DNA from: Eledone cirrhosa
Taxonomy: Eukaryota
Direction: 5' to 3'
DNA length: 14,506 bases
Assembly: GCA_964016885.1 (NCBI GenBank)
Contig: CAXHJY010000820.1
Location: 1 to 14,506, forward strand
Under the pieces are notes generated by a model. That model worked only from the letters and a program-made list of their open reading frames with translations, did not search any database and was not told the DNA's origin. The translations under genes and the position numbers were made by a program. Shown here one piece after another: positions 8,878-14,506 of the stretch (within the stretch, counting starts at the first letter, position 1; the number at the start of each line of letters is the position of its first letter).

Positions 8878-9239
8878 GTAAGTCTTATACATGGCACACC
8901 TGTCTAATATATTTGTGCCACTATTACACACTTCCTTTTTCAAGACCTACAGATTAGGATGGGCATCAGTAAAGCAGGCATTTTTTTTTTACAGATATTA
9001 AAAATAATTTCTTTTTTTAAATATATAAAAACATTTCCTTCTGGTTATCTACACCTTCAGTTCAAATCTTATTGAAGCCAAATTTGTTTTTCAATAAAGC
9101 ATCCAGTAGTAGGGTCGATTCTGCACTCTCTCTCACCCCGTGGAAGAAATCCGCTATAGTCAAATCTATAGAGGGAAGTTTAAAATGCCCAAGTTACACT
9201 GGTACACATACAACATGGGATCAATGATTAGTGATTTCA

Positions 9240-9700
9240 TGTTGGTGGTGTTATTGGTGAAGAGGGTGTTGCTGGTGTTGTTGTTAGTGGTGTTGGTGGT
9301 GTTGTTAGTGATGTTGGTGTTGTTGTTAGTGATGTTGGTGTTGTTGTTAGTGTTGTTGTTCGTACTGGTGTTGTTGGTATTGGTGTTCGGTGTTGTTTGT
9401 GTTGGTTGGGTTGTTGGTGTTGTTTGTGTTGGTGTTGTTGTTGGTATTGGTGTTGTTGTTGTTGGTATTGGTGTTGTTGTTGTTGGTATTGGTGTTGTTG
9501 TTGTTGGTATTGGTGGTGTTGTTGGTATTGGTGTTGTTGATGTTGTTTGTGTTGGTATTGGTGGTGTTGGAAATGTTGGTGTTGTTTGTGTAGTTGTCAG
9601 TTGTAGATAGTGGTGTTGGTATTGTTGTTGTTGGGGATAATGTTGGTGTAGGATGTGTTGTTGTTGTTAGTGTCGTAGTAGGTGGTGGTGGTAGTTGTGG
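9240..9700. repeat. (GTT/GGT)n low-complexity repeat with GTTGTTGTTGTTGGTATTGGT-type subunits
   Basis: Directly visible. It yields poly-V/L and poly-N/T ORFs. Confidence 0.93.
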
Positions 9701-11392: not shown

Positions 11393-11560
11393 TTAACCTT
11401 TTAGTATTTGCATTACTCTGTATATATTGTGTATTTTCGAAGCAATAGGCTTTACCTCACATAATTATCTCACATAATACTGAATTTATGAGATTTTGAT
11501 ATTATTTGTTTTGAGAACAATTCTGACCGGATACAGCCGGTTTAAATACTAAAGGTTTAA
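11393..11560. mobile_element. 168-bp TTAA-flanked MITE (piggyBac-like ends)
   Basis: The left end TTAACCTTTTAGTATTT and right end AAATACTAAAGGTTTAA are near-perfect inverted repeats, with TTAA at both outer edges. Confidence 0.7.
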
Positions 11561-11568
11561 CTCATTTT

Positions 11569-11765
11569 GGTGCCATGATAAAAGGTATTCAGTCCACACA
11601 GTAAATGTGGTTGGCATTAGAAAGGGCATCCAGATATAGAAACCAAGCTAGAAACAGTTTTGTATGAACAAGACATGGTCATCTGACTTGACTTGACTTA
11701 CGATGAGACAACTCATCTAACCCATGCTAGCATGGAAAAGTGGATGTTAAACTGTCATGATGATA
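11569..11765 (+). mobile_element. SINE-like repeat with RTE-related 3' tail
   Basis: GTGGTTGGCATTAGAAAGGGCATCCAG.TATAGAAACC ... AACCCATGCTAGCATGGAAAAGTGGATGTTAAA..ATGATGAT is the reverse complement of the motifs at 3493-3630. Confidence 0.75.
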
Positions 11766-12140
11766 ATACCAAATTTCTAATAAATGATACTTCCTATGAT
11801 TTACAAATAACTTTGTAAAGAATCAAGGATTTGGAAGGATTTAGTAATATAACTAACTTTCTCACTATTAAGCTGGTGTTTTGAACATAACAGATATTTA
11901 GATAAAATTAAAACACAAGCAGCATCCTCGTGTAAGAAATATGACTATAAATGGTTAATGTTGTTATTATTGAGATTGTTGTTGACATATATATATATAT
12001 TAGGATTGGTGCCCTGAAATAGCGATGTATACATGAATGTATGTATAATATATTTGGCAATATACCATATGTTTAATTAAAAACATTTTGGAGACCTTGC
12101 GTTATCATTTTTAAAGTAGTGACTATGTCACTTACTTCTT

Positions 12141-12231
12141 TTTTCGGCAAAAGAAGGGAGAGAAGCTGACAGATTCTGTTTCACGCTGTTGGCGATCCTC
12201 AGAGCATCGTACTCCCTGCCTCTGCCGAAAA
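12141..12231 (-). ncRNA. Type I hammerhead ribozyme (left arm, minus strand); predicted cleavage between 12168 and 12167
   Basis: Exact reverse complement of 12286-12376. Confidence 0.88.
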
Positions 12232-12285
12232 TTATAGAGGCTGGATTCTTATAGAATTCCAGTAAGAATCAGGAACTGATTATAA

Positions 12286-12376
12286 TTTTCGGCAGAGGCA
12301 GGGAGTACGATGCTCTGAGGATCGCCAACAGCGTGAAACAGAATCTGTCAGCTTCTCTCCCTTCTTTTGCCGAAAA
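12286..12376 (+). ncRNA. Type I hammerhead ribozyme (right arm); predicted cleavage after GUC at 12349
   Basis: CUGAGGA (12315-21), stem II U-CGC-CAACA-GCG-U, GAAA (12335-38), stem III ACAG-AAU-CUGU, C17 at 12349. Stem I is GAUGCU/AGCUUC, then a UAC/U internal loop, then a 20-bp distal helix 12286-12305 with 12357-12376. Confidence 0.88.
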
Positions 12377-12505
12377 AAGAAGTAAGTGATATAGTCACTA
12401 CTTTAAAAATGATAACGCAAGGTCTCCAAAATGTTTTTAATTAAACATACGGTATATTGCCAAATATACTATACATACATTCATATATATATATATATGT
12501 ATATA

Positions 12506-12549: not shown

Positions 12550-12754
12550 TGTATATATATGTATACATACATACATATATATGTATACATACATATATAT
12601 GTATACATACATACATATATATTTAATTTGTTGGAAATCCAACAAATATAGATGTTTATAACTGATTCAGAGCACTCAACAGATTTCTGGAGTAAGTATT
12701 CAATGATATTAAATAAATGGCAACTATATTTATAAAACCATATTTATTCTATTC

Positions 12755-12910
12755 GGACGCCATGCTTTCCAGCATAGTTACGTCCCCTTACGATCTGAGT
12801 TCAAATCCCGCCGAGGTTGACTTTGCCTTTCATCCTTACGAGGTCGTTAAAATAAAGTACCAGTAATGCACTGGGTAATTGCTGGCCTTGTGCCTAAAGT
12901 AGAAACAATT
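12755..12910 (+). mobile_element. tRNA-derived SINE (5'-truncated) with a Meta-domain-like core
   Basis: A Pol III B-box-like GAGTTCAAATCC at 12797-12808 is followed by GACTTTGCCTTTCATCCTTACGAGGTCGTTAAAATAAAGTACCAG, which resembles the MetaSINE core as I recall it. Confidence 0.7.
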
Positions 12911-12960: not shown

Positions 12961-13035
12961 ATACAAAATGTTTTATAAATATTTGACATGACCAAGGATA
13001 ATATACCTTAATGGTTCAAGTTATCCCTGGAAAGT

Positions 13036-13364
13036 GTATATATATATATATTATTATACATACATACATATATATGTATACATACATATATGTATACATA
13101 CATACACATATATGTATACATACATACATATATATGTATACATACATACATATATATGTATATATACATACATACATATATATGTGTACATACATACATG
13201 TCTATATGTATACATACATATACATGTATACATACATATACATGTATACATACATATATATGTATACATGCATACATATGTATACACACATATATTTGTA
13301 TGTATACATACATATATATGTGTGAGTATACATATATATGTGTGTGTATATATATATATACATA

Positions 13365-13406
<42 letters not shown>
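13036..13406. repeat. Compound (TACA)n/(TA)n microsatellite
   Basis: Directly visible. Confidence 0.96.
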
Positions 13407-13410
<4 letters not shown>

Positions 13411-13783
13411 TTTGTGGTTTTCATTTGTTTTTTTTATTGTTTTTTTTTTTAGAGTGAGTCATCTGTAGAAGGTTCATGATGAAAAGAAGGGAAAGAAGAC
13501 TTGATATGGGAAAGAAAGAAAGAACAGCAAGCAATTAAGGAACCAACAGCAACAACAATGAAAATTAAAAGCAATGAAGAGGAGGAAGGAGGAAGAGATA
13601 CTGGGGAAGTGAGGAGGTTCAGAAAGATAGAAAAGATGAAAGGCAAGCTAGAGAGGAGAACAACAACAACAACAACAACAAATACAAGATGGGGAGAAAG
13701 GGGAGACAAACAAAAACAAAAAAAACAACACACAAATATTGTATAACTTCAAACTCCTTCCCGCCATTACAATTCCTACCGAT

Positions 13784-14506
13784 ACTACCACCTTCACTAC
13801 CACTATAACAAGTCCCACCGCGACTACTACTACATTTAGTACCACTACTATAAGTACCACTGCTACTACTACTTCCACTACCACTATAAGAAGTCCCACC
13901 ATGACTACTACTACCTCTAGTACCACTATTACAAGTACCACTGCTACTACTACTACTACATTTAGTACCACTACTACAAGTACCACCACTACTACTACTT
14001 CATTTAGTACCACCACTACTACTACTTCATTTAGTACCACTACTACAAGTACCACCACTACTACTACTTCATTTAGTACCACTACTACAAGTACCACCAC
14101 TACTACTACTACATTTAGTACCACTACTACAAGTACCACCACTAGTACTACATTTAGTACCACTATTACAAGTACCACTACTACTACTACTTCATTTAGT
14201 ACCACTACTACAAGTACCACCACTACTACTACTACATTTAGTACCACTACTAGAAGTACCACCACTAGTACTACATTTAGTACCACTATTACAAGTACCA
14301 CTACTACTACTACTTCATTTAGTACCACTACTACCAGTCCCACCGCTACTACTACTACTTCTACTATATTTAGTACCACTACTACAAGTCCCACCGCTAC
14401 TACTACTATATTTAGTACCACTACTACAAGTCCCACCGCTACTACTACTACTTCTACTACATTTAGTACCACTACTACCAGTCCCACCGCTACTACTACT
14501 ACATTT
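13784..14506. repeat. (ACT/ACC)-derived minisatellite, unit about 39-45 bp (TTTAGTACCACTACTACAAGTACCACCACTACTACTACT..), running off the window
   Basis: The recurring TTTAGTACCAC anchor is directly visible. Confidence 0.93.

Follow-up and report, generated by a model that had tools for sequence, protein, structure and literature searches.

What kind of element places two outward-pointing hammerhead motifs, one on each strand, within a single short palindrome? The question is raised by a locus in the 14,506-bp stretch of Eledone cirrhosa DNA analysed here (the window), which is a whole unplaced contig of a 3.0-Gb assembly. A first, sequence-only reading had described a young palindromic element and proposed that it was either a non-coding hammerhead retroelement or an inverted pair of pseudo-LTRs (pLTRs) of a Penelope-like element (PLE). 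A non-coding hammerhead retroelement with a PLE-type inversion is supported here by the repeat unit, the layouts of its copies, and their TA targets. We consider it probable that a 317-bp, non-coding hammerhead repeat present in many copies (a non-LTR retrozyme) inserted once at this locus, as two 5'-truncated, head-to-head copies in (TA)n that were likely written by PLE enzymes. Such a locus is ordinary for a PLE-rich genome, with a known insertion pattern and a new retrozyme family.

The palindrome and both hammerhead motifs are real. As first described, the two arms (12033-12236 and 12281-12484) are 204 bp each and differ at three positions (12048/12469, 12067/12450, and 12127/12390), while their inner 109 bp match perfectly. 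The arms are indeed rich in CpG (observed/expected 0.89-1.02, against 0.37 in the left flank at 11500-12032 and 0.32 over the whole window), and no open reading frame (ORF) of at least 100 aa overlaps them. The claim that both outer ends merge into a TACA/TA microsatellite holds in part: (TA)n abuts both true ends (11987-11999 on the left, 12485-12498 on the right), but the left end is not microsatellite at 12033. There the element runs 33 bp further, to 12000, and the TACA-like letters belong to it. The whole insertion therefore spans 12000-12484, as two 5'-truncated copies of the 317-bp repeat placed head-to-head with their 3' ends outward. Projected on the family unit, the minus-strand, long-end arm (12000-12284) covers positions 34-317 with a complete 3' end, and the plus-strand, short-end arm (12281-12484) covers positions 82-284. 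A 33-bp tail (12000-12032, unit positions 285-317) is present on the minus-strand arm and absent from the other, consistent with family ends that fall at two places. The 44-bp centre (12237-12280) is only an apparent spacer, being the 5' part of the minus-strand copy, and the inversion junction (12281-12284) is a 4-bp TATA overlap common to both arms. Since both flanks are (TA)n, a target-site duplication is unreadable.

Read outward, each arm presents CUGAGGA, stem II, GAAA, a 4-bp stem III, GUC, and a long, open-ended stem I, which is the layout of a type I hammerhead motif; the core order CUGANGA, GAAA, and UH cleavage site is found on both strands as CUGAGGA, GAAA, and GUC. The putative plus-strand motif lies at 12286-12376 (CUGAGGA at 12315-12321, stem II with U.U at its base, GAAA at 12335-12338, C17 at 12349), and the putative minus-strand motif at 12141-12231. 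The 5' ends that had been expected at 12350 (+) and 12167 (-) agree with the predicted cuts, 12349/12350 and 12168/12167, respectively. Of the claim that each arm holds a full ribozyme, the core and stem layout thus stands on both strands, without a counterpart in Rfam, which returned no hammerhead family on the window (E<=1) or on the 103-base motif at 12283-12385 (E<=10). The assignment is based on the motif, its pairing, and its variation across copies. Across 64 distinct copies, 91.9% of cells at hammerhead pairs are paired, whereas sliding the partners lowers this share to 42-56%. At one position of stem II, 44 of these copies have an A-U pair and 15 a G-C pair; in stem I, three pairs switch between G-U and standard pairs. 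This covariation amounts to essentially one subfamily event. In the hammerhead consensus, the pair that closes the base of stem II (10.1-11.1) is a standard one. Here that pair is nonstandard in the window copy and in 51 of 123 pieces (U.U), and A-U in 69; U.U at this position also occurs in an unrelated hammerhead adjoining PLE-like ORF remnants. The minimum-energy fold predicted for a single arm mispairs the core and lies 2 kcal/mol below the active fold. Each strand of the window copy carries one sense ribozyme motif, and this copy could therefore not release a unit-length circle.

The repeat behind the locus was derived from 98 near-full pieces and can be read directly from its genomic copies. 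Its 317-bp unit is non-coding, carries one hammerhead in one polarity, and falls within the retrozyme size range (a non-coding unit of ~170-400 bp with a type I hammerhead, here without an ORF). Searching the source genome with an arm, as had been suggested, revealed a high-copy family in which palindromic, single-orientation, and tandem copies could be counted: there were 2,232 first-look candidates, 219 exact matches to a 28-mer within the ribozyme, and 2,001 exact matches to a 27-nt motif at the 3' end. At least 2,000 3' segments of the repeat are present in the genome. The sequence upstream of the unit's first base is usually the 3' end of a previous unit, with 94 exact head-to-tail junctions; among these 94, no run at unit spacing was found, and long arrays did not turn up. 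At 6 of the 85 loci sampled, two complete cores share an orientation; the window locus has no such pair. Our literature searches listed no paper on this family, although supplements of published work may hold related consensus sequences.

A sister non-coding family of ~340 bp was met at L195-L209 (e.g., L199, L200, and L202). It shares the 3' segment and the TA targets and comes in both tandem and inverted layouts; its hammerhead has a long palindromic stem III and the U3-A8 core variant reported in PMC4209133. Because the sister family combines this segment with equal layouts, the shared 3' segment suggests a signal that may be recognised by the enzyme. A separate observation concerns short-read contigs of run X5, from another organism, which cover the unit's 3' part (window 12016-12071) far more deeply than the ribozyme part. 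This hints at a related family with a common 3' end, with the qualification that summed depth is not copy number and that the stretch is partly low-complexity.

To place the window copy within its family, we used a main sample of 85 distinct loci, drawn from the first 100 of 219 listed 28-mer matches and thus selected for the hammerhead. Of these, 48 are head-to-head with their 3' ends outward, none is simply tail-to-tail, 2 are complex, and 35 have a single orientation. The hammerhead core is spanned on both strands at 23 of the 85. A third sample of 27 loci, picked on the 3' motif and unselected for the hammerhead, contains 12 head-to-head loci; 3 of the 27 span the core on both strands. The inversion breakpoints, i.e., the 5' ends, are scattered along the whole unit and do not pile up at the ribozyme cut (5 of 171 within positions 146-156, against 13 in the flanking 22 nt). 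Insertion is therefore a variable process that yields the two-ribozyme palindrome among other outcomes, and the initial view of the unit as a palindromic element does not survive.

The outer 3' ends show a very different order, which is likewise directly observed. They cluster at two places, 33 bp apart, and a TA run adjoins 103 of 136 of them, compared with 83 of 850 background positions. Among 63 outward loci, taken from the 85 together with the 25 best BLAST loci, 19 with a damaged end were set aside; in 40 of the remaining 44, one end is long and the other short, so that exactly one end carries the 33-bp tail (p=9e-9 vs 50%). The same rule applies to all 8 classifiable loci among the 12 outward loci of the third sample. 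These copies display the hallmarks of PLE-type insertions: a head-to-head, 5'-truncated inverted copy, a one-sided tail, and a microsatellite or AT-rich target.

Four published systems bear on this pattern. Retrozymes, and the proposal that PLEs mobilise them, have been set out for metazoan non-LTR retrozymes (Cervera and de la Pena 2020, PMC7229834) and by Li, Clavereau and Pollet (2026, bioRxiv 10.64898/2026.07.22.740005). Our family resembles the metazoan elements in its non-coding unit of ~300 bp, low GC content, type I hammerhead, head-to-tail junctions, and dispersed monomers and short multimers. It differs in that the majority of its loci combine incomplete units with an inverted arm, and two same-orientation cores are infrequent. 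PMC7229834 uses neither the word "inverted" nor the word "microsatellite". For PLEs, Craig et al. (2021, PMC8557442) described inverted, 5'-truncated copies that sit in (TA)n targets, with a tail of 30-40 bp that is often confined to one end, and Arkhipova et al. (2013, PMC3846280) described head-to-head layouts and, on one inverted pLTR, a tail of 31 bp; in the accessible parts of both papers, the one-sidedness of the tail is stated qualitatively. The window family shares with endonuclease-bearing PLEs that have inverted pLTRs the head-to-head copy, the one-end tail (33 bp here), partial tandems, (TA)n, and microhomology joins. Unlike these elements, it has no ORF and no partner was found here, and its unit is itself a tandem repeat. 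Hammerheads 100-700 bp apart on opposite strands in Schistosoma, read as truncated PLEs (Cervera and de la Pena 2014, PMC4209133), offer a similar pair of motifs, although those are minimal hammerheads, whereas in the window motif stem I is long and stem III is a near-palindrome of 4 bp. Lastly, the PAc Poseidon PLE studied in vitro cuts both strands and has two RT start sites that bracket the tail (Frangieh et al. 2024, PMC11167929). The likeness extends to an AT-rich target with both strands cut and extended there, start sites that define the tail, and no need for hammerhead cleavage, in keeping with the lack of a 5'-end pile-up at the cut in our family. However, that system, as far as the available text describes it, shows no strand difference in the choice of start site, while the genomic copies examined here pair one long with one short end in 40 of 44 cases; the in vitro study therefore does not explain the long/short rule.

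These comparisons can be combined into a possible route of insertion. The RT/GIY-YIG protein of a PLE would bind the repeat RNA, as a circle or an uncleaved multimer, and would cut both strands of a TA target. Each target 3' end would be extended, with synthesis beginning at either of two RNA start sites, and the two cDNAs, having ended prematurely, would be joined, at the window locus via the TATA microhomology. Ribozymes on opposite strands would then arise whenever both cDNAs run past the hammerhead, and the long duplex is likely a by-product. In the specific form towards which we lean, with modest conviction, both strands at a double-strand cut would act as primers (twin priming): an RT working as a dimer would extend each target strand from its own fixed start site on the RNA, the two sites lying 33 nt apart, before the cDNAs are joined. 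The relations between the arms are informative here. The two arms belong to the same subfamily at 24 of 28 testable loci (shuffle mean 12.5), yet at 15 of the 37 clean loci the tail-less arm extends further 5' than the long-end arm, the lengths of paired arms show no correlation, and at 7 loci neither arm contains the other. Together, these features speak less for fold-back than for a pair of cDNAs that were separately primed from a single RNA source.

Fold-back would involve the same family and enzymes, with the first cDNA (or an antisense RNA) priming itself at a microhomology and copying itself, and later central deletions blurring the geometry. Taken alone, the window locus fits such a process, as its short arm (unit positions 82-284) lies wholly inside the long arm (34-317) with a TATA overlap; overlaps of 1-5 bp occur at 28 of 66 junctions, self-priming has been proposed in PMC3846280, and a fold-back palindrome that later lost part of its centre asymmetrically could likewise end up with arms that do not contain each other. 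Nevertheless, the 15 loci with a longer tail-less arm and the 7 non-containing loci speak against it, and it gives no reason for stopping exactly 33 bp short at 40 of 44 loci. We therefore regard fold-back as unlikely.

It is also conceivable that the copies represent not a self-contained retrozyme but truncated stumps left by the pLTRs of an autonomous PLE, since all of their insertion hallmarks match those of PLE pLTRs. Many ORFs combining an RT with a C-terminal GIY-YIG domain are indeed present in the genome, and several have a cysteine-rich linker that we take to be Neptune-like. However, the 3' end of a previous unit precedes the unit start at a precise junction (the 94 exact cases), and no shared upstream ORF exists across 110 + 27 loci; no autonomous PLE ORF was found at the window locus or upstream of these sampled copies. 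Nor does the 317-bp unit serve as a pLTR at any of the 50 GIY-YIG loci examined (of 150 scored, of 10,597 candidates), one of which (L074) carries it as an insertion in its TA tail. Copies joined to a PLE RT/GIY-YIG ORF, a prospect raised at the outset, were thus absent from both the sampled copies and these 50 loci, and we hold the stump interpretation to be quite improbable. Two candidates for a larger element were set aside along the way: a same-strand pair 4.5 kb apart at C2:124.68 Mb, considered as a full-length PLE, is a local duplication without a PLE ORF, and the common upstream DNA of L212 and L224 is a segmental duplication.

A more trivial concern is that the palindrome is an assembly or fold-back artefact, given that the window is an unplaced contig in its entirety. 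Its right ~1.5 kb (12975-14500) overlaps the chromosome-scale sequence C6 (G000:C6:71027495-71029051) next to a 200-N gap, and the probable place of the contig is therefore within this gap or alongside it. The 50 kb of C6 inspected lack the element, and as the overlap is confined to 12975-14500, the assembly offers no second allele of the insertion site. Among the short-read matches listed, no piece bridges the central junction, and depth falls to zero at 12268-12291 in 2 of 3 runs, a hole that proves nothing; the left flank is absent from all 3 runs at 98% likeness. On the other hand, one short-read contig (run X4) equals 11877-12025 with zero differences, 26 of its letters lying within the element. 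The three arm differences, the one-sided tail, and the microhomology junction, as seen at dozens of loci on chromosome-scale contigs, also make an artefact very improbable.

The sequence-only reading had further pictured a built-in switch between double-stranded RNA and ribozyme. Its geometry holds, as the full read-through transcript is predicted to fold into a long duplex at -375 kcal/mol, against -290 kcal/mol with the hammerhead enforced, which would bury the ribozyme by ~85 kcal/mol; the switch itself finds no support. Despite this predicted fold, and although all 12 core bases are intact on both strands at 13 of the 23 two-strand loci, a selected switch is scarcely credible in view of the scattered breakpoints, the minority status of two-ribozyme copies (23/85; 3/27), arms that decay to a median difference of 6.6%, and a core that goes unprotected in inserted copies. 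In these copies, bases of the 5' core change at 3.0% compared with 3.4% for the rest of the unit, the pattern expected of unselected copies. A viroid-like design with ribozymes in both polarities is likewise unsupported, because the unit has one hammerhead in one polarity and the second stems from the inverted copy. If transcribed, hundreds of such palindromes could passively supply long double-stranded RNA.

Relative to its family, the window insertion looks young, as had been supposed. Its arms differ at 3 of 203 aligned sites (1.5%), the lowest of 49 pairs, the other 48 having a median of 6.6%. The simplest reading of this divergence is a recent insertion; gene conversion between the arms is the alternative.

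The counts assembled for this family bear on two questions that are left open in the accessible parts of earlier papers: (i) which enzyme mobilises animal retrozymes (PMC7229834) and (ii) how PLE inverted repeats and tails form (PMC8557442, PMC3846280). If twin priming is correct, the family would be direct genomic proof of retrozymes riding PLE machinery, with a minimal substrate of 317 nt. The one-long/one-short rule and the non-containing arms provide a testable prediction for an in vitro PLE system.

The window and the fetched loci contain further repeats that are distinct from the 317-bp family. The minus strand at 12955-12730 carries another hammerhead repeat, unrelated to the first, with CUGAUGA, a long stem II, and an AU stem III that is palindromic; it is split at its predicted cut by a very high-copy insertion of ~160 bp (~12751-12908). 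Intact copies of this repeat occur at L037, L061, L072, and L113, and many short-read contigs skip the ~160-bp insert. At L087, L114, and L186, repeats downstream of PLE ORFs have U3-A8 type cores (UUGAAAA ... GAAACCGGUA), and many further hammerhead families are present among the fetched loci. The window also has threonine-rich, low-complexity open frames at 13652-14506 (+) and 9166-9666 (-), which are either simple repeats or mucin-like in character. Near 13453, a run of pyrimidines closes with AG; this is a possible splice acceptor which, if real, would place the element in an intron.
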